A stretch of 64,000 nucleotides of DNA from Candidatus Gastranaerophilales bacterium (GTDB lineage: Bacteria > Cyanobacteriota > Vampirovibrionia > Gastranaerophilales > Gastranaerophilaceae): NCBI GenBank assembly GCA_944323875.1, contig CALUUH010000008.1, positions 1,542 through 65,541 of the forward strand, read 5' to 3'. Numbering within the stretch: the stretch's first letter is position 1; every line of letters starts with the position of its first letter. Below are positions 9,436 through 62,308 of the stretch, one piece after another. Below the pieces are notes generated by a model. The model was not told the DNA's origin, searched no databases, and saw nothing but the letters and a program-made list of their open reading frames with translations. Both the position numbers and the translations under genes were made by a program.

Positions 9436-9942
9436 CTATATAATTATTGTATGCGTAACAGGAATATCAAATTCGTCATGCGGAAGTTTTTCAGTATACA
9501 GTTCTTTTGGAATTAGTGAAACAGTTGTAATATCCGGATTTTTAGCTAAAAATCTGTCGTAAAACCCGCCGCCATAACCAAGCCGGTAATTTTGCAAATC
9601 CAACATAAGAGCCGGTACAACAACCAGATCCAAAATATTTGCATCAACAGGAGCAGAACACGGTTCCATAATTTTTAAGTCAGAACATTTAAACTCCAGA
9701 CAATACGGACAAACCAGTAATTTATCGCCATCAACTTTCGGGAAATAAAAATTTTTGTCGTCGTTCAGCAATTCCAGCAAATCTATTTCATTTTTCAACG
9801 GGTAATACAGCATTATATTTTGAGAATTAATATAATAGTCTTTTTGTCTGAGTTCGGTGCAGAACTTTTGACTAACTGTCTTTATATCAATCTCTTTTCG
9901 TTTAGTTTTTGCAATTATACGCAGGTCTCTTTTATTATCCAT
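9436..9942 (-). CDS. 5-formyltetrahydrofolate cyclo-ligase
   Basis: 168 aa. Family-typical YFPKV and GYGGGFYDRFL motifs. Confidence 0.85.
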   Translation of the reverse strand: MDNKRDLRIIAKTKRKEIDIKTVSQKFCTELRQKDYYINSQNIMLYYPLKNEIDLLELLNDDKNFYFPKVDGDKLLVCPYCLEFKCSDLKIMEPCSAPVDANILDLVVVPALMLDLQNYRLGYGGGFYDRFLAKNPDITTVSLIPKELYTEKLPHDEFDIPVTHTIII

Positions 9943-9971
9943 ATTTTTACTATATAATAAAGTCAGGTATT

Positions 9972-10550
9972 ATGACAAATTTATGCAGCAACAATTTAAT
10001 AAATCCTAATTGGGCAAAACACGGCTATATACAGGTTTATACGGGCGACGGCAAAGGTAAAACAACAGCGTCGCTGGGCCTTGCAATGCGTGCACTCGGA
10101 CGCTGCTGGAAAGTTCTTATAATTATGTTCACCAAAGGCGGAGACGATTATGGTGAATTGAAATCATTCAGAAATTTATCGGACGAAATTCGTGAAAATT
10201 TAACCATTGTACAGGCCGGACTGGACAGGATAGTTTATTCCGATAACAAGAATGATTTAGACAGAGAAGAAATTCAAAAGGGCTGGCAGCTTGCCAAAAG
10301 AGCTATCCTTAATGACGAATATAACCTAATTATTCTTGACGAGGCGAATATAGCAATAGATTTAGGACTGATTGAATTGGAAGAAGTCATAGAAGTTTTA
10401 AAAAGCAAGCCTGAGGATATGGAAATCGTTTTAACCGGCCGGAATGCAAGACCGGAGATTATAGAAATTGCGCATCTGGTTTCAGAGATAAGACCTGTTA
10501 AACACTACTGGGACACAGGCATAGCGGCCCGCGAAGGTATTGAATATTAA
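9972..10550 (+). CDS. cobO: Cob(I)yrinic acid a,c-diamide / cob(I)alamin adenosyltransferase
   Basis: YTGDGKGKTTASLGLAMRALG P-loop and ILDE. The start is moved to the ATG at 9972 because the 9909 extension overlaps the divergent gene. Confidence 0.85.
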   Translation: MTNLCSNNLINPNWAKHGYIQVYTGDGKGKTTASLGLAMRALGRCWKVLIIMFTKGGDDYGELKSFRNLSDEIRENLTIVQAGLDRIVYSDNKNDLDREEIQKGWQLAKRAILNDEYNLIILDEANIAIDLGLIELEEVIEVLKSKPEDMEIVLTGRNARPEIIEIAHLVSEIRPVKHYWDTGIAAREGIEY

Positions 10551-11289: not shown

Positions 11290-11598
11290 TTAAGCGGATT
11301 GAAGTTTGTCAACAGATATTGTGTACCCCAGCCCGCCTAATATTTTGTTTATTGTTACAAGACTCGGTGTTTTTGTTCGCCCGTGCAAAATATCAACCAG
11401 CTGTACTCTGTTCATGCCGACATCCTCGGCAAATTTGCTTACGGTTGTGCGTGCTTTGATTACCTGTTCTAATGCCCTGAAAAATTCAATGTAATCTCCG
11501 TCTTGAGCGTACTCAATAAGAGTCTGTCTTATCCATTCACGCTGAAATTCAGGGTTTTGTAATTCTTTATTTAAATAATCATCAAACTTTATGTTCAT
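11290..11598 (-). CDS. higA: HigA-type antitoxin (addiction-module antidote, HTH)
   Basis: 102 aa with a C-terminal HTH (FAEDVGMNRVQLVDILHGRTKTPSLVTINKILGGLGY). 4-nt overlap with the upstream toxin gene. Confidence 0.75.
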   Translation of the reverse strand: MNIKFDDYLNKELQNPEFQREWIRQTLIEYAQDGDYIEFFRALEQVIKARTTVSKFAEDVGMNRVQLVDILHGRTKTPSLVTINKILGGLGYTISVDKLQSA

Positions 11599-11924
11599 TG
11601 CTTTTTACTCCTGGTTATATAGTCTTTAAGGTATTTATCGGCTTGCTTAATAACTCTTTTTTGATCGCTTTTGTCACTTCCTGCTATTATTAGAATTATT
11701 ACATTATCTAATTCTTTAAAATAAATACGGTATCCTTTACCAAAAAATAGACGCATTTCACATAATTCGCTGTTTTGTAAATGTTTCCAGTCTCCGTAGT
11801 TGCCATCGCGCATTCTGTTTATACGCTTGTTGATACGAATGCGGTAATCAACACTTAGTGTTTGAACCCATTCAATGTAAGGACATTTACCCTCTGCAGT
11901 TGTGTATAATTCTATTTCTTTCAT
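11595..11924 (-). CDS. higB: HigB/RelE-superfamily toxin (addiction-module killer protein)
   Basis: 109 aa. ...GKCPYIEWV...INRMRDGNYGDWKHL...GKGYRIYF...IAGSDKSDQKRVIKQA matches the killer-protein family pattern. Toxin-first order is typical of higBA. Confidence 0.75.
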   Translation of the reverse strand: MKEIELYTTAEGKCPYIEWVQTLSVDYRIRINKRINRMRDGNYGDWKHLQNSELCEMRLFFGKGYRIYFKELDNVIILIIAGSDKSDQKRVIKQADKYLKDYITRSKKQ

Positions 11925-11986: not shown

Positions 11987-12020
11987 TTGACTTGGAGTTG
12001 ACTCCAGATTGTAGTATAAT
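11987..12020 (+). promoter_or_regulatory. Promoter with an embedded palindrome (MerR-type architecture?) upstream of the flavodoxin-to-larE block
   Basis: TTGACT (11987-11992). Perfect palindrome TGGAGT-tg-ACTCCA (11993-12006). TAGTAT at 19-nt spacing or TATAAT (12015-12020) at 22 nt. Confidence 0.45.
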
Positions 12021-12046
12021 ATGGTAAAGCAATTTATGGAGATGGT

Positions 12047-12619
12047 ATGAATAAAAAATTAATTATTTCAATTTTAGGTTTGGTTGTTATTTTATGCTCT
12101 CTGGGCATATACAAGGTTTTGGCTGATCAAAACAAGGAGGTCTATATGGACGATAAAAAAATACTTATTGCATACTTTTCCCACTCAGATAACACAAAAG
12201 CTGTTGCCGAAAAAATTCAGGATATTACAGGTGGTGACTTGTTTGAGATAAAACCGCAAAAGCCTTATCCGCGTGAATATAATGCAGTTGTTGAAATAGG
12301 TAAACAAGAAAAGGAAAACAATGTATTTCCTGAATTGGCGGATAACGGAAATGTTGAAAATTATGATATAGTATTTATAGGAACACCTGTATGGTGGTAC
12401 ACAATGGCCGGCCCTGTCAAAACATTTATTGCCAATAACAATTTTGACGGCAAGATAATTGCTCCTTTCTGTACTCATGGCGGCGGCGGTGCTTCCGCAA
12501 CTTATACTGATATGCAGAAACTTGCCCCGAATGCTACTGTGACAGAAGGATTTACTTCTTATGAACATTCTGCTAAAACAGAAGATGTAAAAAAATGGAT
12601 AAGTGGTTTAAAATTTTAG
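12047..12619 (+). CDS. Flavodoxin-family protein, possibly with an N-terminal membrane/signal anchor
   Basis: ILIAYFSHSDNTKAVAEKI and FIGTPVWWYTMAGPV flavodoxin-like motifs. Residues 1-25 are hydrophobic. An alternative internal start at 12146 has a stronger RBS (AAGGAGG). Confidence 0.75.
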   Translation: MNKKLIISILGLVVILCSLGIYKVLADQNKEVYMDDKKILIAYFSHSDNTKAVAEKIQDITGGDLFEIKPQKPYPREYNAVVEIGKQEKENNVFPELADNGNVENYDIVFIGTPVWWYTMAGPVKTFIANNNFDGKIIAPFCTHGGGGASATYTDMQKLAPNATVTEGFTSYEHSAKTEDVKKWISGLKF

Positions 12620-12628
12620 AGGATAAAA

Positions 12629-13867
12629 ATGAAACGAAGAGAATTCATAATTAATTCGGCACTTGCAGCGGGCGGCGCTGCATTGCTTGCCGGATGCGGT
12701 AAAAAGGAAATTAAAAAATCGGAAAATCAGGTTGTGAGAAGAAAATTTGACAATCTTGAAATTCCTTTAATTGCCCTTGGATGTATGCGTTTGCCTATGA
12801 GCAACGGTAAGATTGATATGGTCGAACTTGACAAAATGGTTGCGTATGCAATGGAGCACGGGGCAAATTATTTTGACACGGCATATATGTATGTTGATGG
12901 GAAATCAGAAAATGCTATCGGTGAAATTTTGAAACAGTACCCGCGTGACAGTTTCTTTTTAACCGATAAAAATCCGTCATATCTTGTTAATTCGCCGGCT
13001 GATGTTCACAGAATATTTAAAGAACAGTTGAAAAAGTGTCAGGTGGAATATTTTGATAACTATATGGTGCACAACATAAATAAAAATACCATAAGCAACT
13101 ATCGTGATAATGATATGTACGGAGAACTTTTAAAGCTTAAAAAAGACGGCTTGATTAAGCATCTCGGATTTTCATTCCACGGAGATCCTAAAATGCTCAA
13201 GGAAGTTATTTCCGAACATAAATGGGATTTTTGCCAGTTACAATTGAACTATTTGGATTGGGAAGTTGTGAACGGCGACCAGTTGTATGAAATTGCAGAG
13301 GAAGCTAATGTGCCTGTAATTGTTATGGAACCGCTGCGGGGCGGCGCTTTGTGCAATATTCCGGCAAAAGCTGCGGAAAAACTTAAAGCGGAATGTCCGG
13401 AGGATACACAGGCCTCTTTCGGGTTGCGCTGGGTTGCAAACAAACCGCTTGTGTTTACTATTCTTAGCGGTATGAGTAATTTACAGCAGGTTAAGGAAAA
13501 TATTGATACTTTCGTAAATTACAGACCGTTTACCGAAAAAGAAGAAAAAACAGCGCACGAAATAGCGCAGATTATCCAATCTCAAGGCGCTATTAATTGT
13601 ACGGCCTGTAAGTATTGTATGGAAGTTTGTCCGAGAGGGATAAATATTCCGGCAATTTTCGGACTTTATAATTTGTATAAAGCAAGCGCTCAGCCAAACG
13701 CAGCATTTATGTTTGTAACAAATTATAATGCGCTGAAAGAAGAAGAACGTGCAGATAAATGTATTCATTGCGGACTTTGTAACAAAAACTGTCCGCAAGG
13801 TTTGGATATACCTAAACTGCTTGCTGATGTGCTTGCAAAAGTTAAGGAAGTTGAACAGGGAATGTAA
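12629..13867 (+). CDS. Aldo/keto reductase fused to a C-terminal 2x[4Fe-4S] ferredoxin domain, with a twin-arginine signal and lipobox
   Basis: MKRREFIINSALAAGGAALLAGCG (RR motif plus LAGC). AKR core LGCMRLP...GANYFDTAYMY. CTACKYCMEVCP and CIHCGLCNKNCP. Confidence 0.8.
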   Translation: MKRREFIINSALAAGGAALLAGCGKKEIKKSENQVVRRKFDNLEIPLIALGCMRLPMSNGKIDMVELDKMVAYAMEHGANYFDTAYMYVDGKSENAIGEILKQYPRDSFFLTDKNPSYLVNSPADVHRIFKEQLKKCQVEYFDNYMVHNINKNTISNYRDNDMYGELLKLKKDGLIKHLGFSFHGDPKMLKEVISEHKWDFCQLQLNYLDWEVVNGDQLYEIAEEANVPVIVMEPLRGGALCNIPAKAAEKLKAECPEDTQASFGLRWVANKPLVFTILSGMSNLQQVKENIDTFVNYRPFTEKEEKTAHEIAQIIQSQGAINCTACKYCMEVCPRGINIPAIFGLYNLYKASAQPNAAFMFVTNYNALKEEERADKCIHCGLCNKNCPQGLDIPKLLADVLAKVKEVEQGM

Positions 13868-13869
13868 TA

Positions 13870-15150
13870 GTGAAACATTTATATAAAATCAGAGTTATAA
13901 CTTCTTTAATAGTTTTTGCGATTGTAGTATTGGGAATGTTAGGTATTTTTTATCCGGCAAAGATTTTTGATTTGCAATTTTTGCCGGTTGCCCAGAGAGT
14001 GATTGTAGATTTTTCTGTTGCAGCTCTTGTGGTTTTGATATTTCTTGTCGGAGCGACATTGATTTTTGGGCGTGTGTATTGCTCTTTAATCTGTCCTTTC
14101 GGGATATTGCAGGAACTTATCGGATTTGTAAAAGGCAAAGTTAAGAAAAATCATAGCGGCAGACAGATAAATTTCCCGCTGAAATATTTTGTTGCCGCGA
14201 TTGTATGGGGAATACTTTTGGGCGGCAGTGCAGTTGCAATAAGATATATTGAGCCTTATACATTGTTTGGCTCAGCATTGTCCGGAACTATCCTCGGGCT
14301 GGCTGCGGTTGTGATTATTCTTACGGCCGTTATACTGAAAGACAGAATATTTTGTACAAATTTTTGTCCGGTGGGTGTGCTGCTCGGACTTTTATCAAAA
14401 GTTTCGCTGAATAAAATCTATATTTCTGATATTTGTGTTGCCTGCGGGCAGTGCGAAAGAAATTGTCCTTCCGGCTGCATTGATGTCAAAAATAAAACGG
14501 TTGATAACGAGACATGTATAAAGTGTTTAAAATGCATTGATATATGTCCGAAAAGCGGTATTAAATACGGCATTAAACCAAAAGGCGAAGTAAAATTCAA
14601 TCCTAAAAGGAGAGATTTGATTATTGCAGTATCAGCGCTTGCCGTGTTTGGCGGAATGATTAAGGCCGGAATTGAAATTAAAGACAAAATTGTCGAAAAG
14701 ATTAAGGATGTAATCTTGCCGCCGGGGGCTGTTGATAAAGAAAGATTTTTGAACAAGTGCCTGAATTGTAATCTTTGTGTTGAAAATTGCCCGAATAAAA
14801 TTATAAAGAAAGCAGATTCAGAATACGGAGCAGTTCACTTAGATTATTCAAATGCACCTTGCAAATTTGATTGCCACAAGTGTTCAGAGGTTTGTCCGAG
14901 CGGAGCAATAAAACGTATCGGACTAGAGGAAAAACAGCGCACACGTATTGCTATGGCAATGATAAATAAGGACAAATGCGCTGAATGCGGTCTGTGCGTT
15001 GAGGCTTGCCCTGTACATGCTATAATCAAAGAAAACGGTAAAGTGCCGATTTTGAATGCAATGAAGTGTATTGGCTGCGGAGCGTGTAAACATGCATGTC
15101 ACTTCGGTGCAATAGAAGTTTTTCCTATAAAGGAACAAAAAACAATTTAA
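13870..15150 (+). CDS. Membrane-bound polyferredoxin (NapH/MauN-like 4Fe-4S binding protein)
   Basis: GTG start. Several TM segments. CSLICPFG and CTNFCPVG (CxxxCP) plus six CxxCxxCxxxC(P) motifs. Confidence 0.8.
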   Translation: MKHLYKIRVITSLIVFAIVVLGMLGIFYPAKIFDLQFLPVAQRVIVDFSVAALVVLIFLVGATLIFGRVYCSLICPFGILQELIGFVKGKVKKNHSGRQINFPLKYFVAAIVWGILLGGSAVAIRYIEPYTLFGSALSGTILGLAAVVIILTAVILKDRIFCTNFCPVGVLLGLLSKVSLNKIYISDICVACGQCERNCPSGCIDVKNKTVDNETCIKCLKCIDICPKSGIKYGIKPKGEVKFNPKRRDLIIAVSALAVFGGMIKAGIEIKDKIVEKIKDVILPPGAVDKERFLNKCLNCNLCVENCPNKIIKKADSEYGAVHLDYSNAPCKFDCHKCSEVCPSGAIKRIGLEEKQRTRIAMAMINKDKCAECGLCVEACPVHAIIKENGKVPILNAMKCIGCGACKHACHFGAIEVFPIKEQKTI

Positions 15151-15165
15151 ACAAAGGAGAAAGAT

Positions 15166-15381
15166 ATGTCATTAGGAATAACAGAAATTTTACTTATACT
15201 GGTTGTGATTTTACTTTTATTCGGCGGTAAAAGAATACCGGAAATTGCAAGAGCGCTCGGGCGTGCATCTTACGAATATAAAAAAGCAAAAAATATCTTG
15301 AAAGAAGAAGCACAAGGACTTAAAGACGCGATTGAAAGTACGGCTGAAAAACCTGAAGAATACCAGCCAAAAGATGTGTAA
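15166..15381 (+). CDS. tatA: Twin-arginine translocase subunit TatA/E
   Basis: 71 aa. [32 protein letters not shown] is canonical (FG hinge plus amphipathic helix). Confidence 0.9.
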
Positions 15382-15384
15382 GTT

Positions 15385-16116
15385 ATGAATGAAGAAAAGG
15401 ATGAAAGTTTAATCTCGCATTTGGAAGCACTTAGAGATACATTGTTGAAATGTATTATCTCTTTTTGTATTGCATTGCCGTTTACATTGTGGGCGGCACC
15501 TGCTGTTCTGGATTGGCTGATTCATACGATTTTGCAGGACAGTAATGTTAAACTCAACTTCTTTTCTCCGGCCGAGGTGTTTTTGATACAGATAAAAACA
15601 GCTATGGTTCTGGCGGTTATTGTTGCTTTTCCTTATATGGCAAAAAAACTCTGGGATTTTGTTTTGCCGGCACTGTATGATAACGAAAAAAAATTCATAA
15701 AGACGGCAGTACTTTCTTCAACGTTTTTGTTTGTATGCGGGGCCGCATTTTGTATTCTGGTTATACTTCCGCTTGTCATAAAATTCGGATTGAGTTTTGC
15801 GGGGCCGAATGTCGATCCGGTGTTTGGAATTTCAAATATAATGAATTTAACGCTGATGATGTCAATTGCTTTCGGGCTTATGTTTCAGATGCCGCTGGTG
15901 ACAATAGCTTTAATCCGTTCAGGCGTTATATCTTATGAAACGGTAAGTGATAAAAGACCTTACGTGATAGTTATTATATTAATTCTTGCGGCGATATTTA
16001 CACCGCCTGATGTGGTCAGTCAGCTTATGCTCGGTATTCCGACATATCTTTTGTTTGAACTTGGACTTTTGCTTGCCAGAATAAATAACAAAAAAATAAA
16101 GGTGGAAAATGAGTGA
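15385..16116 (+). CDS. tatC: Twin-arginine translocase subunit TatC
   Basis: 243 aa, six hydrophobic segments. SLISHLEALRDTLLK N-terminus and FTPPDVVSQ motif. Confidence 0.9.
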   Translation: MNEEKDESLISHLEALRDTLLKCIISFCIALPFTLWAAPAVLDWLIHTILQDSNVKLNFFSPAEVFLIQIKTAMVLAVIVAFPYMAKKLWDFVLPALYDNEKKFIKTAVLSSTFLFVCGAAFCILVILPLVIKFGLSFAGPNVDPVFGISNIMNLTLMMSIAFGLMFQMPLVTIALIRSGVISYETVSDKRPYVIVIILILAAIFTPPDVVSQLMLGIPTYLLFELGLLLARINNKKIKVENE

Positions 16117-16789
16117 TAAATATGTAGAACTTGATTTTGCAAAACTTGATATTGAACGTCAAAAACGCCGCGGATGTTCTGAGGCTGTGTTTTGCGAATG
16201 CAAGACTAATGAACAGCTTATAAAGATTTTTAAAACATTTCATGAACACGGACAAAATGTTATAGGTACAAGAGTTACACCTGAACAGGCACAGGCTTTG
16301 CTGGAAGAATTTTCTGATATAAAATATAATTCTGCGGCGCGGGTTGTGACATTGGTCCAATCAGATATCAGTAAAACAGGAGAGATAGCAATATGCACGG
16401 GCGGCACAGGTGATATTCCGGTTGCGGAAGAAGCAGCAGCCGTTGCAGAGTTTTACGGAAGTAATGTCAAAAAGTATTATGATGTAGGTGTTGCCGGAAT
16501 ACACAGATTGTTTGACAAAATTGATGAAATACGAAAGGCAAATGTCATTATTGCGGTTGCAGGCATGGAAGGAGCTCTTGGCGGAATTTTGGCCGGACTG
16601 GTGGACAAACCTGTGATTGCAGTGCCGACCTCTGTTGGATACGGAGCATCTTTTAAGGGGCTTTCTTCACTTTTGACAATGCTTAACAGCTGCGCGGAAG
16701 GTCTGACTGTTGTTAATATAGATAACGGTTTTAATGCAGGATACAGCGCCGCACAGATTAACAGACTTATTTCAGGAGGGAAAAATTAA
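16109..16789 (+). CDS. larB: Nickel-pincer cofactor biosynthesis protein LarB (PurE-like carboxylase/hydrolase)
   Basis: DIERQKRRGCSEAVFC, ICTGGTGDIPVAEEAA, AVAGMEGALGGILAGL. 8-nt overlap with tatC. Confidence 0.85.
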   Translation: MSDKYVELDFAKLDIERQKRRGCSEAVFCECKTNEQLIKIFKTFHEHGQNVIGTRVTPEQAQALLEEFSDIKYNSAARVVTLVQSDISKTGEIAICTGGTGDIPVAEEAAAVAEFYGSNVKKYYDVGVAGIHRLFDKIDEIRKANVIIAVAGMEGALGGILAGLVDKPVIAVPTSVGYGASFKGLSSLLTMLNSCAEGLTVVNIDNGFNAGYSAAQINRLISGGKN

Positions 16790-17634
16790 TGAATTTATAC
16801 TTTGAATGTAAATCAGGAATTTCAGGAGACATGTCGGTTGCAGCACTTTTGGATCTTGGTGCTGACAGAGAAAAACTTGAAAAAGCACTTGCCTCAATGA
16901 AGTTGGATAATGAGTTTACTTATAACATTTCAAAAAAATCAGTAAACGGAATTATGGCAACGGATTTTGATGTAATATTGCCGGATCGTTGTAACGGCGG
17001 ACACAATTGCGGGCATGGGGCACATCACTGCGGACACGGGCATGATGATTGTGAACACGAACACTGCGAAGGTGAACACCATCACCATTGCGGGAATGGA
17101 AATTGCGGACATTCTCACTGCCATGAGCACAGAAATCTGGAGGATGTAAATGCAATTATTGACAGTGCTGATATAACCGACAACGCTAAAAATCTTGCTA
17201 AAAAGATATTTAAAATAGTTGCGGAAGCAGAAAGCAAGGTTCACGGAAAAGAGATAAAAGATGTGCATTTCCATGAAGTCGGCGCAATTGATTCTATAGC
17301 CGATATTGTGAGTTTTGCTGTTCTGTTTGATGATTTGTCACCGGAAAAAGTTTATTTTTCAACATTAACAGACGGACAGGGGTTTGTAATGTGCCAGCAC
17401 GGGAAAATTCCGGTTCCTGTGCCTGCTGTTTGTGAAATAGCAGCGGCTTATAAACTCCCGTTAAAAATAACCGATAATGACGGAGAAATGGTTACTCCGA
17501 CCGGAGCGGCCATTGCTGCGGCTCTTTACACAGGTGAAGAACTTCCCGAAGAATTTGTGATAGAAAAAACAGGATACGGCGCCGGTAAACGCCATTATGA
17601 AAACCCTGTTTTGAGAGTAATGAGTATAAAGTAA
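16789..17634 (+). CDS. larC: LarC N-terminal (LarC1-like) nickel-insertion protein with a His/Cys-rich tract. The C-terminal CTP-binding domain is absent.
   Basis: MNLYFECKSGISGDMSVAALLDLGA. GHNCGHGAHHCGHGHDDCEHEHCEGEHHHHCGNGNCGHSHCHEH. Ends ...GYGAGKRHYENPVLRVMSIK at 281 aa. Confidence 0.8.
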   Translation: MNLYFECKSGISGDMSVAALLDLGADREKLEKALASMKLDNEFTYNISKKSVNGIMATDFDVILPDRCNGGHNCGHGAHHCGHGHDDCEHEHCEGEHHHHCGNGNCGHSHCHEHRNLEDVNAIIDSADITDNAKNLAKKIFKIVAEAESKVHGKEIKDVHFHEVGAIDSIADIVSFAVLFDDLSPEKVYFSTLTDGQGFVMCQHGKIPVPVPAVCEIAAAYKLPLKITDNDGEMVTPTGAAIAAALYTGEELPEEFVIEKTGYGAGKRHYENPVLRVMSIK

Positions 17635-17645
17635 AGGAGGATATT

Positions 17646-18557
17646 ATGCATTTAGGAAATGGTATTATTTGTCCTGTAACAGGACTCCCGATGTTAGCAA
17701 TAGCAGGCGCAACGGCTTATTATGCTTACAAAAAAGCAAGGAAAGATTTTTCAAAAGACCGAATTTTACCTGCTGTTGCCACAACAGGACTTGTTTTTGC
17801 ATTGCAGATGATTAATTTTGCAATACCTGCTACCGGTTCAAGCGGGCATATTGTCGGCGGCATACTGCTGGCGGCTCTGTTAGGGCCGTATGCGGCATTT
17901 CTGGCTATGTGCGCAATTCTGTTGGTTCAGGTGGTATTTTTTGCAGACGGCGGTTTGCTTGCTCTCGGATGTAATATTTTCAACATGGGATTTTTAGCAT
18001 GTTTTGTCGCTTATCCGTTGTTGTTTAAACCGCTTGCAGACAGAAATAAACCTTTCTTAGGCGCTGTTTTGGCATCAATTGCAGCTTTGCAGCTCGGTTC
18101 AATTGCTGTTGTCATAGAAGGCGCGCTTTCAGGTTCTGTTGCACTTAACAGTATTATGAATTTTACAGGTTTAATGCAGGTAATTCACCTTCCTATAGGT
18201 ATTGTTGAAGGTGTTGTTACAGGCATTGCTGCAGTAATTGCAAAAGTAGTTGACAGTAAAAAATTGTCATATACTTTTGCCGGAATTTCAGTTGTTCTTG
18301 CAGGTGTAATTTCACAATACGCTTCACAAAAACCGGACGGACTTGAATGGTCTTTATTAAACATTTCTGATTCTGTTGTTATACAGACACAAGGGATGCT
18401 TTATGCAATGTCAGAAGCTTTGCAGGCTAAAACGTCAATTTTTGCAAGTATGCCGTACACTTTCGGAAGTATAGCAGGATTGGCTGCTGTTGCCGTAATT
18501 ATGTATCTGTTCGGAGTCGTGATGACAAAACATACGGTAAATGAAAATGCAGAATAA
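17646..18557 (+). CDS. CbiM/NikM-type Ni/Co uptake permease fused to a PDGLE domain
   Basis: MHLGNG N-terminus, multiple TM helices, SQKPDGLEWSL near the C-terminus. No cbiQ/cbiO adjacent. Confidence 0.75.
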   Translation: MHLGNGIICPVTGLPMLAIAGATAYYAYKKARKDFSKDRILPAVATTGLVFALQMINFAIPATGSSGHIVGGILLAALLGPYAAFLAMCAILLVQVVFFADGGLLALGCNIFNMGFLACFVAYPLLFKPLADRNKPFLGAVLASIAALQLGSIAVVIEGALSGSVALNSIMNFTGLMQVIHLPIGIVEGVVTGIAAVIAKVVDSKKLSYTFAGISVVLAGVISQYASQKPDGLEWSLLNISDSVVIQTQGMLYAMSEALQAKTSIFASMPYTFGSIAGLAAVAVIMYLFGVVMTKHTVNENAE

Positions 18558-19326
18558 ATTTTCACAACTGAAAAATTATTTATACGACTTGGAAAAGCAG
18601 GGTTTATACCTTGCTTTTTCCGGTGGTATTGACAGCACGCTTTTGCTCTGGATTTGTAAGGATTTAGATATTATTGCAGTGACTCTTAAATCGGTTTTTC
18701 AAACAGAAGAAGAAATTAAACAGACAAGAAAAATATGCGACAAATACGGAGTAAAACAAAAAATCGTAGAATTTTTTCCTCTGGAAAGCGATATCTTAAA
18801 AAATAATCCTAAAGACAGATGTTATCACTGCAAAAAATTGTTTTTTACCAGACTAAAAGAAATATCAAAGGACGGCTGTGTGATAGACGGCACAAATTTT
18901 GATGACCTTAGTGTATATAGACCCGGTTTAAAAGCATTAAAAGAACTCGGGATAATTTCACCTTTTGCAAAATTTGAAATTACCAAACAAGAAATTAGAG
19001 ATTATGCAAAAGAATGCGGAATAGAAATTTTTGACAAACCTTCAACCCCGTGCCTTGCAACAAGATTTCCTTACGGTACAGAATTGACACCTGAAAAATT
19101 AGCGCTGGTTGAACAGGGTGAAAAAATATTGAGAAGTTTCGGGTTTAATTGTTGCCGTCTGCGCATGCACGGTGATATTGCAAGGATAGAAATACCAGTC
19201 TCTCAATTCGCACAATTTTTAACTGCAAAAGACGATATTATAAAAGCTTTGAAAACACTCAATATAACCTACATAACCCTTGATATGGAAGGTTTTAGAA
19301 GCGGAAGTATGGACATAGTTAAATAA
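18541..19326 (+). CDS. larE: LarE, ATP-dependent sulfur transferase (PP-loop)
   Basis: LAFSGGIDSTLLL PP-loop. CYHC plus STPCLATRF cysteines. An alternative ATG lies at 18547. Confidence 0.85.
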   Translation: MKMQNKFSQLKNYLYDLEKQGLYLAFSGGIDSTLLLWICKDLDIIAVTLKSVFQTEEEIKQTRKICDKYGVKQKIVEFFPLESDILKNNPKDRCYHCKKLFFTRLKEISKDGCVIDGTNFDDLSVYRPGLKALKELGIISPFAKFEITKQEIRDYAKECGIEIFDKPSTPCLATRFPYGTELTPEKLALVEQGEKILRSFGFNCCRLRMHGDIARIEIPVSQFAQFLTAKDDIIKALKTLNITYITLDMEGFRSGSMDIVK

Positions 19327-19380: not shown

Positions 19381-19677
19381 ATGAAAACTCAAAGTATTAC
19401 CCCGAATTTCACAGGTAAATTTACTATTCCGAATGCAGGTAATAATAAAAATGTTACTTATTTATACAACAAAGTTTCAACACTTGTAAAAGATAATCAT
19501 GTAACAGCAAATTTTCATCGCGATAAAATTGAAATAGCTTCTCACAATTCAGCGGACAAAAAGATTAGAAAAGGGCTGAAACAGTTAGGTATTGAATATA
19601 CAGAAAAAGAACCGCCTAAACAGAATAAATTACTGGAATTAGCACACAACTTAATTTCTCAATTTATTCCTCAATAG
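19381..19677 (+). CDS. Hypothetical protein
   Basis: 98-aa ORF. RBS-like AAAGGA upstream. N-terminus MKTQSITPNFTGKF. Confidence 0.45.
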   Translation: MKTQSITPNFTGKFTIPNAGNNKNVTYLYNKVSTLVKDNHVTANFHRDKIEIASHNSADKKIRKGLKQLGIEYTEKEPPKQNKLLELAHNLISQFIPQ

Positions 19678-41334: not shown

Positions 41335-41670
41335 ATGAATACAGTTGTATTGGTCGGCAGAGTAGGCCGTGATGCAGAAATAAGATATTTTGAATCAGGA
41401 AAAGTTAAAGCTAATTTTTCTGTGGCCGTAAACCGCTGGGACGCAAAAACAAAATCTGAAGTTGCAGACTGGTTTAATATCGATGTATGGGATAAACAGG
41501 CTGAATTTGCAGGTGAATATGTAAAAAAAGGTATACTTGTTGCTGTTGACGGCCGCATTGACGTAAATCGCTGGACTGATAAGGCAACAGGGGATGATCG
41601 CGAAAACTTTTTGGTCGTTGCAAATAATATAAGATTACTTAGTTCTAAAAGAGATGTAGAAGCATTATGA
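41335..41670 (+). CDS. ssb: Single-stranded DNA-binding protein, short form without an acidic C-terminal tip
   Basis: MNTVVLVGRVGRDAEIRYFESGKVKANFSVAVNR...WFNIDVWDKQAEFAGEYVKKG OB fold. Ends ...SSKRDVEAL. Confidence 0.85.
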   Translation: MNTVVLVGRVGRDAEIRYFESGKVKANFSVAVNRWDAKTKSEVADWFNIDVWDKQAEFAGEYVKKGILVAVDGRIDVNRWTDKATGDDRENFLVVANNIRLLSSKRDVEAL

Positions 41671-42983
41671 TAGTTACCTCTAATATAGTCGGAATACTTG
41701 CTGACGATTTGACCGGTGCTAATGATACCGCGTTACAATTTCATATTCAGGGGGCAAACACACAGATATTACTTTCTAATGATGTTGAGCCGCTGAATAC
41801 TAAAAATACACAGACCTGGGCTGTTTCAACTGAATCAAGAAATGTGGCGCCGGAAGAAGCGTTTCAGTCTGTCAAAAGTGCAGCAGAAATGCTTATCCAG
41901 AAGATAAATCCTGACTATTTCTATAAAAAAATTGATTCTACTCTGAGAGGGAATATTGCGGTTGAGGTACTGGCATTACTTGATACATTAAATTGGGATG
42001 CAGCGGTAATTGTGCCTGCTTTTCCGCAGGAAGGCCGTATTACTGTCGGCGGATATCATCTTTTAAAAGGTGTGCCGATTGAGCGTACAGAAATGGCCAG
42101 AGATCCTTATTCGCCTATATTTGAATCTCATATTCCGACTCTGTTTGCCGCGCAAATTGATGAAGAATGCAAAGATTTAATCGGCACTATTGAGTTAAAG
42201 ACCATAATGAACGGCGCGGGCCCTATTTTACGCGAGTTAAATGAATTGATTTCAGACGGTAAAAAACTTATCATCGCTGACGCGGTTTCAACCGTTGATA
42301 TTGAACAAATTGCACTGGCTATAAACAAATCCGATTATAATATTCTGCCGGCCGGAACTGCCGCATTTGCACGTTCTCTTGCCGAATTATGGTTTATTGA
42401 CCTTGATAACAGCCATATCACTAAAACTTTCCCTGAATTACCAAAGTTAATTATTTCAGGAAGTGCAACACAAATTACGGCAAATCAAATTAAAACTCTT
42501 GAAAATAGTGATGATATTGACGCTCTCATAATAAGTCTGACATACGATAATATCAAAAACGGTGTATCTGAGGCATTAGTTGATCGTATTGTATCTAATT
42601 TGGGACAAAAAAATACGGTTTTAGTGCATACATCTCATATTATCCAAAATTTTGACGGATTTTCTGATGATTCCCTGAATGCCGAACTCACCCGTACTAA
42701 ATTAGCCACGATGATTACGGATTATCTGGCCGAATTGACACAGAAAGTAATTGCTAAACATGAGGTTATTTTAATAACTCTCGGTGGTGAAACTTCTTAC
42801 AAATGCTGTAATGCCATAGGTGCAAACCAATTGCAGCTTATTGATGAAGTTGTTCCGGCTATTGCTCTTTGTATGGATCACAATGCACAGTGGATTGTCA
42901 CCAAATCAGGCAACCTCGGGAATGCTAACACTCTTATTGATATATTAAAATATTTTGAGTCACACGAAAGCTCTGCAGGATAA
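41667..42983 (+). CDS. Four-carbon acid sugar kinase family protein (DUF1537; threonate/erythronate/4-hydroxythreonine kinase class)
   Basis: GILADDLTGANDTA N-terminus and KSGNLG near the C-terminus. ATGA overlap with ssb. Followed by a PdxA-family gene. Confidence 0.8.
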   Translation: MIVTSNIVGILADDLTGANDTALQFHIQGANTQILLSNDVEPLNTKNTQTWAVSTESRNVAPEEAFQSVKSAAEMLIQKINPDYFYKKIDSTLRGNIAVEVLALLDTLNWDAAVIVPAFPQEGRITVGGYHLLKGVPIERTEMARDPYSPIFESHIPTLFAAQIDEECKDLIGTIELKTIMNGAGPILRELNELISDGKKLIIADAVSTVDIEQIALAINKSDYNILPAGTAAFARSLAELWFIDLDNSHITKTFPELPKLIISGSATQITANQIKTLENSDDIDALIISLTYDNIKNGVSEALVDRIVSNLGQKNTVLVHTSHIIQNFDGFSDDSLNAELTRTKLATMITDYLAELTQKVIAKHEVILITLGGETSYKCCNAIGANQLQLIDEVVPAIALCMDHNAQWIVTKSGNLGNANTLIDILKYFESHESSAG

Positions 42984-42985
42984 AA

Positions 42986-43909
42986 ATGGATTATCAGAAT
43001 AAAATAGCGATTACAACGGGCGATCCTGACGGTATCGGCGCTGAAATAACAATTAAGGCTCTAAACAGGCTTAATTTACCGTCTGAAAGCGTTGTAATTA
43101 TTTCTAACAGCAAAATTCTTGACTACTACGGCAAGTTAAACAATTCGTACGAAGTATTGGAAATTCCCTATAATGCAGAAGTAAGTCCGGGGCAAATAAC
43201 AGCCGAATGCGGCGAATTTTCTTTTTTGTCACTAAAAAAGGCGTGTGAAATAAAGCCTAAAGCGATTGTGACAGCTCCGGTTGCCAAAAGTGCACTGCAT
43301 AAAGCCGAACATATCTTCAACGGTCAAACAGAAGTGCTTCAACATTTTCTTGCACATGACAGGCAGAAGGCCGAAATGCTTTTTGTTGCAAACGATTTTA
43401 GAGTCCTGCTTTTGACACGTCATTGCGCTCTAAAAGACATTCACCTTACGGAAAATGTTGTTATAGAAAAGATAATGAACCTAAAACAATTCTTTAATAA
43501 TCAATTGAATATGCAGGCTCCTAAATTTGCTTTATGCGGATTTAATCCTCATGCCGGTGAGGACGGGATATTAGGACGGGAGGAAATTGATGTTCTTATT
43601 CCTGCTGTCCAAAAGCTGCAAAAAGCAGGAATTGATATCACAATGCCGCTGCCGGCCGATACGTTATTTGTAAAAGCCGGACAGGCTTATCGGGATAACA
43701 AAAAAATGCCTTATGACTGCTATATAGCTAACTACCATGATCAAGGGCTAATCCCGATAAAAACCGTTGCCGGCAGTGCAACTGTAAATATGACAATAGG
43801 ACTGGATATTATCAGAACATCCCCTGGGCATGGCACAGCCTTTGATATTGCAGGAAAAAATATTGCAGACGAAACTGGCATGATCGCGGCAATTAAGGCT
43901 GTTTTGTAA
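42986..43909 (+). CDS. pdxA: PdxA-family 4-hydroxythreonine-4-phosphate dehydrogenase-like enzyme
   Basis: IAITTGDPDGIGAEI, GFNPHAGEDG, YHDQGLIP, TSPGHGTAFDIAG. Confidence 0.85.
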   Translation: MDYQNKIAITTGDPDGIGAEITIKALNRLNLPSESVVIISNSKILDYYGKLNNSYEVLEIPYNAEVSPGQITAECGEFSFLSLKKACEIKPKAIVTAPVAKSALHKAEHIFNGQTEVLQHFLAHDRQKAEMLFVANDFRVLLLTRHCALKDIHLTENVVIEKIMNLKQFFNNQLNMQAPKFALCGFNPHAGEDGILGREEIDVLIPAVQKLQKAGIDITMPLPADTLFVKAGQAYRDNKKMPYDCYIANYHDQGLIPIKTVAGSATVNMTIGLDIIRTSPGHGTAFDIAGKNIADETGMIAAIKAVL

Positions 43910-61990: not shown

Positions 61991-62308
61991 ATGCACTGGA
62001 TGATCTTATTAATTGCAGGATTTTTTGAAATAAGCTGGGCTATAGGATTAAAGTATTCTCACGGTTTTTCCCATATTATCCCCTCTGTAATCACAATAAT
62101 TTGCATGATTGCAAGTTTTTATTTTCTGGCACTTGCTCTAAAAAGTTTACCGCTCGGGACTGCATACGCAATATGGACAGGTATAGGCACTCTGGGGACG
62201 GTTATATTAGGCATTATCCTGTTTAAAGAGCCACTGACAGCAATGCGTCTTGTCTGTATAGCTCTGATTATTACAGGAATAACCGGTTTGAAACTGCTTA
62301 CGCATTAG
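61991..62308 (+). CDS. sugE: SMR-family guanidinium exporter (SugE/Gdx)
   Basis: MHWMILLIAGFFEISWAIGLKYS (conserved Glu in TM1). 105 aa, four TM segments. Downstream of the guanidine riboswitch. Confidence 0.9.
   Translation: MHWMILLIAGFFEISWAIGLKYSHGFSHIIPSVITIICMIASFYFLALALKSLPLGTAYAIWTGIGTLGTVILGIILFKEPLTAMRLVCIALIITGITGLKLLTH

Follow-up and report, generated by a model that had tools for sequence, protein, structure and literature searches.

In about 15% of genomes, including most cyanobacteria, larBCE occurs without larA, and the client of these genes is an open question (PMC11796402). The same question is raised by a block of nine genes in a 64,000-nucleotide stretch of contig CALUUH010000008.1 of a Candidatus Gastranaerophilales bacterium (assembly GCA_944323875.1; hereafter the window, in which positions are counted unless another locus is named). 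Candidatus Gastranaerophilales are non-photosynthetic Melainabacteria. The nine plus-strand open reading frames (ORFs) were tightly packed over 12047-19326. Genes for a flavodoxin, an aldo/keto reductase fused to an iron-sulfur domain (AKR-FeS), a polyferredoxin (PFD), TatA and TatC come first, and larB, larC, a cbiM-type transporter gene and larE follow. Which enzyme would use the nickel-pincer cofactor here? The initial annotation of the window left two options. One was an extracytoplasmic reductase chain fed through the polyferredoxin and merely co-transcribed with the lar genes, and the other was a client of the nickel-pincer nucleotide (NPN) that is not LarA-like. We give a probability of roughly 55% to the reading that the nine genes form a single operon for making and exporting an extracytoplasmic AKR that depends on the nickel-pincer cofactor and is wired to a transmembrane Fe-S chain. 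The AKR-FeS protein is most likely an exported, electron-wired variant of the nickel-pincer AKRs that were first reported in 2026.

The precedent comes from Semersky et al. (Nat Chem 2026; PMC13524815), who mined LarC neighborhoods that have LarB and LarE and no LarA. PF00248 AKRs were present in 427 of these larA-less neighborhoods. The protein NphT (PDB 9YEB), which has the AKR fold, binds nickel-pincer mononucleotide (NPMN); its K200 tethers the cofactor covalently and its H144 coordinates nickel. The usual AKR tetrad of NphT serves for intermolecular hydride transfer, and NphT both oxidizes and reduces aldoses with the same cofactor. Among the lar-linked AKRs, 34% have the histidine and the lysine and 40% have the histidine without the lysine, and non-covalent binding was proposed for the latter (PMC13524815).

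We compared the window AKR with NphT residue by residue. In a PDB search with the full-length AKR-FeS protein, 9YEB ranked 12th. When two helices of the query were X-masked, 9YEB was among the top five matches, and this alignment was used for mapping; a C-terminal fragment query was of no use because spurious matches dominated. The catalytic tetrad D83/Y88/K114/H148 is kept and invariant, and matches D47/Y52/K75/H106 of NphT. The segment KHIGITGHGH of NphT aligned with KHLGFSFHGD of the window protein, which places S182 at T142 and, at high posterior probability, H184 at the nickel ligand H144. Compared with the canonical G-x-S-N motif, the two proteins have one extra residue in common, giving S/T-x-H-G after strand 5. 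Further on, LMTIKAIARG of NphT aligned with VIVMEPLRGG, so that M233 corresponds to I199 and E234 to K200; G281 corresponds to G248. The fold and tetrad, the lar context with no larA within about 20 ORFs and the nickel-ligand histidine all agree with the NphT family. By sequence and context, the window AKR would fall into the histidine-only class, sharing three of the four features that define the family. Given Glu234, binding of the pincer cofactor would be non-covalent.

The association of the two halves of the block is not restricted to this genome. A survey of 185,579 species genomes and Joint Genome Institute (JGI) metagenomes gave 166 AKR-FeS loci (L numbers below), which we annotated locally. 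The order AKR-PFD-TatA-TatC-LarB-LarC1-(CbiM)-LarE recurred in five Gastranaerophilales loci, L003, L008, L009, L010 and L090, with protein identities to the window of 55-87% (for the AKR, 67% in L003 and 79-82% in the other four). L008-L010 came from a one-genome-per-species collection. The metagenome scan returned chiefly cytoplasmic AKR-FeS proteins, and L090 was its sole new lar adjacency. CbiM lies inside the lar cluster in L008, L009, L010 and L090, and a flavodoxin belongs to the cluster in L003, L009, L010, L011 and L090. None of 14 proteins flanking the block in the window was found in the flanks of L003, L008, L009 or L010 (the flanks of L090 were not compared). Because the flanks differ while the order stays, the block has been moved or kept as a unit. 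Thus, the adjacency of tatAC-larBCE to the AKR-FeS gene holds in five other loci, four of them with unrelated flanks, and a chance juxtaposition of the Tat/redox and lar genes is ruled out.

The spacing of the genes points in the same direction. The genes are separated by 9, 2, 15, 3 and 11 nt or overlap by 8 nt (tatC/larB), 1 nt (larB/larC) and 17 nt (cbiM/larE). Re-listing of the ORFs reproduced every coordinate, gap and overlap in the initial annotation, and Pfam and NCBIfam/TIGRFAM scores returned all nine gene families as named there. The ATG at 12047 has a GGAG ribosome-binding site in front of it. The promoter-like hexamers described upstream (11987-12020) are really there, and the match at 11998-12025 scored 9/12 in a promoter scan; however, such sites occur in the region at the level of chance (33 found vs. 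34.1 in shuffles). The palindrome that overlaps the second hexamer could be an operator, e.g. for a regulator that responds to nickel; we identified no regulator gene. The block had also been said to have no internal hairpin terminator. We found no convincing one, but eight weak plus-strand terminator-like hairpins were listed. The presumed co-transcription is better argued from the gene overlaps than from promoter or terminator signals. A 98-aa ORF at 19381-19677 was considered as a tenth gene of the operon and rejected, as it had no family match and no homolog in the other clusters.

The N-terminus of the AKR-FeS protein, MKRREFIINSALAAGGAALLAGC, contains a twin-arginine (RR) motif and a lipobox and is predicted to be a Tat lipoprotein signal. 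In a set of 120 close homologs, RR was present in all 115 proteins with an N-terminus and the lipobox cysteine in 110/120; RR, S-F-H and M-E-P were invariant wherever the residue was present. An AlphaFold2 (AF2) model with a predicted local distance difference test (pLDDT) score of 80.9 has an ordinary AKR TIM barrel followed by a helical Fe-S domain. The top Foldseek matches of this model were canonical AKRs and reflect the generic fold (PDB library to 2026-04-08, without 9YEB), and no solved structure in that search spanned both the AKR and the Fe-S domain.

The third gene had been described as NapH-like, which is right for one part of the protein and too narrow for the whole, a NapH-NapG fusion that carries an RR motif internally. 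Its NapH part combines four transmembrane (TM) helices with two CxxxCP motifs and has two [4Fe-4S] motifs on the cytoplasmic side (Cys motifs at 189 and 216). Then come NPKRRDLI at aa 244-251 (nt 14599-14622; RR247-248), TM5 at aa 250-268 (nt 14617-14673) and the Lys-rich EIKDKIVEKIKD. In the NapG-like part, up to four [4Fe-4S] sites are predicted outside (motifs at 297, 331, 370 and 400; three canonical CxxCxxCxxxC and one variant). Tooke et al. (eLife 2017; PMC5449189) found that the MLMS-1 NapH-NapG polyferredoxin is dual-targeted by Sec and Tat, with Tat recognizing TM5, and named no redox partner for it. The window PFD has the same sequence features, namely four Sec-type TMs, RR before a weakly hydrophobic TM5, positive charges and a multi-cluster domain. 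Two predicted Tat clients, the AKR by its signal and the PFD by RR and TM5, are therefore encoded beside the operon's own tatAC. The flavodoxin has an N-terminal hydrophobic helix (aa 6-24) as signal or anchor, and its FMN domain is predicted to lie outside the cytoplasm.

A mechanism can be proposed for these genes. Ni(II) would be imported by CbiM-PDGLE, and NPN would be made in the cytoplasm by LarB, a [4Fe-4S]-type LarE and a LarC1-only cyclometallase. The AKR-FeS precursor would be loaded with the cofactor and two [4Fe-4S] clusters, and the folded holo-AKR would leave through the operon's TatA/TatC by its twin-arginine signal to become a lipoprotein. Export would depend on Tat because this is the only route for a protein that receives cofactors made in the cytoplasm. 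TatAC would also flip the NapG-like four-cluster domain of the PFD across the membrane, using the internal RR before TM5. The AKR would exchange electrons with a donor or acceptor that is either cytoplasmic or a quinol. The route would run through the PFD clusters and on to the two clusters of the AKR itself, and the exported flavodoxin may serve as a one-electron to two-electron converter. The electrons would end at the bound pincer cofactor, which would exchange hydride with a periplasmic carbonyl or alcohol on the D-Y-K-H tetrad. The periplasm has no NAD(P)H pool for an AKR. The exported enzyme could work there because a fixed pincer cofactor would be regenerated by the Fe-S clusters. The analysis shows the gene identities, signals, motifs and synteny and builds on the NphT precedent; from these we infer that this AKR binds the cofactor, how and in which direction the electrons move, and the type of substrate.

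The lar genes themselves are unusual in one respect. As the initial annotation had it, the larC gene encodes the N-terminal domain (LarC1) only. Its ORF ends exactly at the LarC1/LarC2 linker when aligned with the full-length LarC of L024 and L034. Its 21 His cluster at aa 66-115 in a His/Cys-rich nickel-binding stretch (nt 16984-17133), the predicted nickel site. All 120 nearest LarC homologs are 240-281 aa long, i.e. LarC1-only throughout Gastranaerophilales; because of this, the LarC1-only state is a stable feature of the lineage rather than an error of assembly. A tblastn search with the LarC2 domains from L024 and L034 found no LarC2 in the window or within 10 kb of any Gastranaerophilales cluster, although the domain is regarded as essential for activation with CTP. 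LarC2 performs a CTP-dependent CMPylation ahead of nickel insertion in LarC1 (PMC13510736). The LarE of the block has the CXXC-C tri-cysteine motif that marks the [4Fe-4S] LarE subclass (PMC9283937), and is predicted to be a [4Fe-4S]-dependent, non-sacrificial sulfur transferase. CbiM-PDGLE is a probable nickel importer, an S component of the CbiM/NikM type. Its Pfam domains scored above cutoff and every NCBIfam CbiM equivalog below cutoff, and the block contains no CbiQ or CbiO. A CobO gene lies upstream (9909-10550); we rejected cobalt import as the main role of CbiM, since CbiM stays in the lar cluster despite different flanks. The absence of LarA (DUF2088) from the 64 kb, reported before, was confirmed, and no second Ni_insertion domain was found either (Pfam for about 2.6-39 kb, hmmscan of the remaining ORFs, and secDF, infB, prfA, dapA and PiT recognized by eye).

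Features of the nine-gene block and its upstream region (positions in the window; for the LarE motifs, the number after each motif is the residue)
Feature	Position	Strand	Length	Evidence or remark
Promoter-like region	11987..12025	+		TTGACT at 11987 and 11998, TATAAT at 12015-12020; direct reading
Palindrome GGAGTTGACTCC	11994-12005	+		Perfect; overlaps second TTGACT hexamer, just 5′ of the operon
Flavodoxin	12047..12619	+	190 aa	Flavodoxin_4 PF12682, 1.4e-31
AKR-FeS	12629..13867	+	412 aa	Aldo_ket_red PF00248, 5.9e-40; Fer4 dicluster models
AKR-FeS twin-arginine motif KRREFI	12632-12649	+		
AKR-FeS lipobox LAGC	12686-12697	+		
AKR-FeS S182-F-H184	13172-13180	+		H184 = NphT H144
AKR-FeS M233-E234-P	13325-13333	+		E234 = NphT K200
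AKR-FeS two CxxCxxCxxxCP motifs	13598-13633 and 13760-13795	+		C-terminal 2x[4Fe-4S] domain
PFD	13870..15150	+	426 aa	NapH-NapG fusion; TIGR02163 NapH 6.5e-28, NapF 5.8e-24, NapG 6.5e-16
TatA	15166..15381	+		PF02416, 1.9e-16; TIGR01411 56.1 bits vs. cutoff 53.9
TatC	15385..16116	+		PF00902, 3.8e-59; TIGR00945 170.5 bits vs. cutoff 132.7
LarB	16109..16789	+		NaAD carboxylase/hydrolase of nickel-pincer synthesis; NF033503 294.5 bits vs. cutoff 175
LarC1-only LarC	16789..17634	+	281 aa	TIGR00299.2 197.8 vs. cutoff 90; Pfam Ni_insertion positions 1-233/375
CbiM-PDGLE	17646..18557	+	303 aa	N-terminus MH; PF01891 8.6e-47, PF13190 1.1e-10
LarE	18541..19326	+		TIGR00268 268.3 bits vs. cutoff 150
LarE motif SGGIDS27	18619-18636	+		
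LarE motif CYHC94	18820-18831	+		
LarE motif PCL170	19048-19056	+		

How does the block compare with the AKR-FeS family at large? A search of 1.84 billion representatives gave at least 944 clusters (50% identity) at E<1e-30. Among the best 150 family representatives plus the query, S-x-H was present in 146/151, M-E-P in 139/151 and Glu at 234 in 144/151. The RR signal was found in 12/151, and most representatives were about 375 aa long without a signal peptide. By these alignments, the S-x-H-G histidine belongs to the AKR-FeS family as a whole and can be argued either way. About 144 of the surveyed loci outside Gastranaerophilales were of the cytoplasmic type; larB-larC-larE were adjacent in two (L024 and L034) and Flavodoxin_4 in four. 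The RR-signal type accounted for another 14, many of them on short contigs, with a polyferredoxin in seven, TatAC in two (L012 and L013), CbiM in one and lar genes in none.

In both L024 (Acetivibrio) and L034 (Pseudoflavonifractor capillosus), the cytoplasmic AKR-FeS gene directly adjoins larB/larC/larE, and LarC is full-length. In L014 (7996-12784), from a metagenome-assembled genome labeled Rhodospirillaceae, an RR-type AKR-FeS gene, a polyferredoxin gene and cbiM are followed by ORFs that by inspection are CbiQ-like and CbiO-like, and these together would be a complete energy-coupling factor (ECF) nickel/cobalt transporter; the 13.8 kb contig carries no lar genes. Three Gastranaerophilales loci, L004-L006, have two RR-type AKR-FeS genes and then directly CbiM-PDGLE. 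One of the two (L004 8688-9944; also in L005 and L006), directly 5′ of the intact copy, is a degenerate paralog with 45% identity. In this paralog H184 is gone (GFSGPG), as are the tetrad His (IFNIV) and a portion of the second Fe-S motif, and it may serve as a partner subunit without catalytic activity. L012 kept AKR-PFD-TatAC without lar genes within 7.7 kb downstream; the gene-poor stretch after its tatC contained one tRNA only, and no lar genes, masked N runs or rRNA. Thus, nickel-related genes became neighbors of AKR-FeS genes several times independently, and lar linkage is rare outside Gastranaerophilales.

Some further observations were made in these loci. L024 also encodes a canonical AKR14-like reductase (14242-15237; GISNYD, FSPLAQG) without the nickel-type histidine, on the far side of larB-larC-larE from AKR-FeS. 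In L034 (14534-18083), the order AKR-FeS-larE-larB-larC is followed by four ORFs that by eye resemble an FmdE-like protein and an ABC binding protein, permease and ATPase; they may form a further system for metal uptake that belongs with the cluster. Three family representatives with 'SGP/AGP' (P0122, P0126 and P0186) are akin to the degenerate L004 paralog. A Flavodoxin_4-type gene lies near a cytoplasmic AKR-FeS gene in four Clostridia (L053, L062, L086 and L138). This recalls the flavodoxin gene at the head of the window operon, and AKR-FeS and flavodoxin may be recurrent partners.

Several points weigh against a nickel-pincer AKR in the block. The lysine tether (K200) of NphT is missing, with Glu234 at its site, and Glu234 is near-invariant throughout the family. 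Where NphT has GLASAGDVRLLPK, the canonical LSGMSNLQQVKEN is retained in the window AKR and aligns to VLIGASKPSQIIEN of 6HG6. Retention of this dinucleotide-site motif, SGMSxxxQxxxN, argues against a capped cofactor cavity of the NphT type, which excludes the AMP half of NAD(P). In overall sequence, the window AKR is nearer to canonical NADP-dependent AKRs than to NphT (53 vs. 36 bits). Outside Gastranaerophilales, lar genes were in the flanks of 2/~158 loci and of 0/14 Tat-type loci; given this rarity, the histidine may be a family trait unrelated to nickel. LarC2 is missing from the cluster, so the pathway to NPMN stands incomplete there, and a larA gene could lie elsewhere in the genome. 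The mechanism also presumes that Fe-S clusters can reduce NPN one electron at a time. The support is genomic throughout, and nickel binding by AKR-FeS is a prediction.

Much of this would be expected if the block held two separate modules on one transcript, with AKR-FeS and the PFD using tightly bound NAD(P)H or no nicotinamide at all, and NPN being made for a LarA-type or other client encoded elsewhere. The resemblance to NADP-dependent AKRs, the canonical motif together with the lacking lysine, the many family members away from lar genes and the L012 arrangement all fit this explanation, and our view covers 64 kb of the genome. However, the two halves stay joined, with tatC and larB coupled, in at least six loci, and the four that were checked have unrelated flanks. 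CbiM adjoins AKR-FeS genes even where lar and tat are missing (L004, L014), and adjacency to larBCE arose independently for cytoplasmic AKR-FeS in two Clostridia. Two separate modules would also leave the NphT-type histidine insertion, and a periplasmic AKR without an NAD(P)H pool, to be explained. We consider this explanation unlikely. The two options of the initial annotation seem instead largely to merge into a pincer client that is also an exported reductase chain. The structural half of the reductase option stood, on topology and RR motifs, and its 'merely co-transcribed' half is disfavored. The non-LarA client is the better-supported option, given the AKR/NPMN precedent (PMC13524815), the nickel-ligand His insertion and the conserved block, with cofactor binding as a prediction.

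The missing LarC2 led to a second alternative, which refines rather than contradicts the idea of a nickel-pincer AKR. The AKR-FeS cofactor would be an NPAD-like dinucleotide that retains AMP and is bound non-covalently, and the CMP-adding LarC2 would be dispensable. The 120 LarC1-only homologs and the lack of LarC2 near any cluster fit well. LarC2 CMPylates P2TMN so that LarC1 metalates a dinucleotide-like intermediate, which is mimicked by the AMP analog P2TAD (PMC13510736), and Semersky et al. suggested that some AKRs may bind NPAD (PMC13524815). The canonical adenosine-side motif and the absence of the lysine in the window AKR would also be as expected. On the other hand, full-length LarC occurs together with these AKR-FeS motifs in L024 and L034, the score of LarB is that of a standard equivalog with no sign of lost hydrolase activity, and LarC2 may be encoded elsewhere. 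As a specific proposal, its chances seem distinctly poor. It is very improbable, and a matter of direction only, that the chain is oxidative, with the exported AKR-FeS as a periplasmic dehydrogenase of sugars, alcohols or aldehydes that passes electrons into the cell via the NapGH-like PFD: NphT oxidizes as well as reduces aldoses, AKR chemistry is reversible and PFD clusters lie on both membrane sides, but NapGH-type modules are quinol dehydrogenases that send electrons outward (PMC5449189), and no sequence feature in the block fixes the direction.

The nickel-pincer reading can be extended tentatively, and here we would lean against it, to all Fe-S-fused AKRs (at least 944 clusters), as nickel-pincer enzymes whose Fe-S clusters recycle the cofactor, in Gastranaerophilales by a LarC2-independent route. 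Were this so, it would be the first coupling of nickel-pincer catalysis to an electron-transport chain, with net redox chemistry and not a hidden or substrate-to-substrate hydride transfer. The Gastranaerophilales AKR-FeS would be the first extracytoplasmic, Tat-exported pincer enzyme, and its cofactor would come from a LarC1-only pathway, possibly an AMP-retaining, NPAD-like route. Even without this extension, the operon as we read it would place nickel-pincer chemistry in an extracytoplasmic redox chain of common, uncultured gut bacteria of humans and animals. It would also provide a concrete candidate for a non-LarA client of larBCE in the cyanobacterial lineage, to which Gastranaerophilales is a sister lineage. 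Other possible gains are a physiological partner for NapH-NapG fusion polyferredoxins and a new class of Tat cargo. In its LarC1-only form, the cluster is a natural test bed for whether LarC2 and its CTP-dependent step can be dispensed with. Should the histidine motif prove diagnostic, the current annotation as NAD(P)H enzymes would be wrong for a very large family of 'aldo/keto reductases' in anaerobes.

The window has 37% GC, and it is chromosomal because housekeeping genes are on board (murF, mraY, murD, ftsW, murG, secDF, infB and prfA); ftsW is intact across 34.1-35.3 kb. Homologs with species labels agree with an origin in Candidatus Gastranaerophilales. Two small overlapping minus-strand genes lie directly 5′ of the operon (11290-11924); one weakly matches an HI1420-downstream antitoxin-like family. 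They look like a toxin-antitoxin pair and are absent from the flanks of the other clusters. A guanidine-I riboswitch on the plus strand (RF00442; 61845-61944; 83.4 bits vs. gathering score 63) lies directly 5′ of a small multidrug resistance (SMR) family gene (61991-62308, plus strand), which is the classic guanidinium-exporter arrangement. At 41667-43909 (plus strand), a DUF1537-type four-carbon acid sugar kinase (SBD_N and NBD_C) is followed by a PdxA-family dehydrogenase, a pair that is usual for threonate/erythronate-type acid-sugar catabolism.

The cytoplasmic AKR-FeS proteins (about 375 aa; widespread in Clostridia and other anaerobes) are one family to compare with the exported enzyme. 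They have the same two domains with 35-47% identity and the same invariant D83, Y88, K114, H148, S182, H184, M233, P235 and eight Cys, but lack a signal peptide and a polyferredoxin partner; literature searches found no functional characterization of them. An NPAD-dependent ornithine cyclodeaminase, known to us through citations of work by Desguin et al. (Int J Biol Macromol 2025), is reportedly another non-LarA pincer client that was found by its adjacency to lar genes. Like the proposed AKR it is said to bind its cofactor non-covalently, and unlike it, as cited, it has a fold other than AKR; a link from it to LarC1-only clusters is our own suggestion. The NapGH and MLMS-1 polyferredoxins resemble the window PFD in their four NapH-type TMs, CxxxCP motifs, cytoplasmic clusters, RR before TM5 with positive charges, and NapG-like domain outside. 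The window PFD differs in that it adjoins an exported AKR-FeS gene, as in 7/14 of the other Tat-type loci, and in that no nap genes are present.

The lar system of Lactiplantibacillus plantarum (larA-larB-larC1/C2-larD-larE and lar(MN)QO) likewise clusters LarB, LarC1, LarE and a NikM/N-like fused uptake component. The window block, by contrast, has no LarA, no LarC2 and no Q or O transporter subunits, its LarE is of the CXXC-C [4Fe-4S] type and not sacrificial, and its lar genes are joined in an operon with Tat and redox genes.

The initial annotation could not assign the arrangement to a described system. This now holds in part: the link between AKRs and NPMN dates from June 2026 and concerns a soluble enzyme, which moves hydride from one substrate to another (PMC13524815), and an exported, Fe-S-fused, polyferredoxin-coupled AKR is mentioned neither in the main text of that paper nor in the other publications returned by full-text literature searches. 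The NphT family is the closest known system. NphT and the window AKR share the AKR TIM barrel, the D-Y-K-H tetrad, larB/larC/larE neighbors without larA, and the nickel-ligand His in the S/T-x-H-G insertion. They differ in that the window AKR has Glu234 for the covalent Lys200, does not conserve equivalents of W218/Y219, and adds a C-terminal 2x[4Fe-4S] domain, a Tat signal and a lipobox. What appears to be new beside NphT is the combination of an Fe-S domain, a predicted Tat lipoprotein signal, a NapH-NapG polyferredoxin, tatAC within the operon and a LarC1-only cyclometallase. The membrane polyferredoxin, flavodoxin and dedicated TatAC as partners imply net electron transfer, unlike the substrate-to-substrate hydride shuttling of NphT, and the operon points to another mode of use for the pincer cofactor, in which it would sit in an exported enzyme and be recycled through Fe-S clusters and a membrane polyferredoxin.

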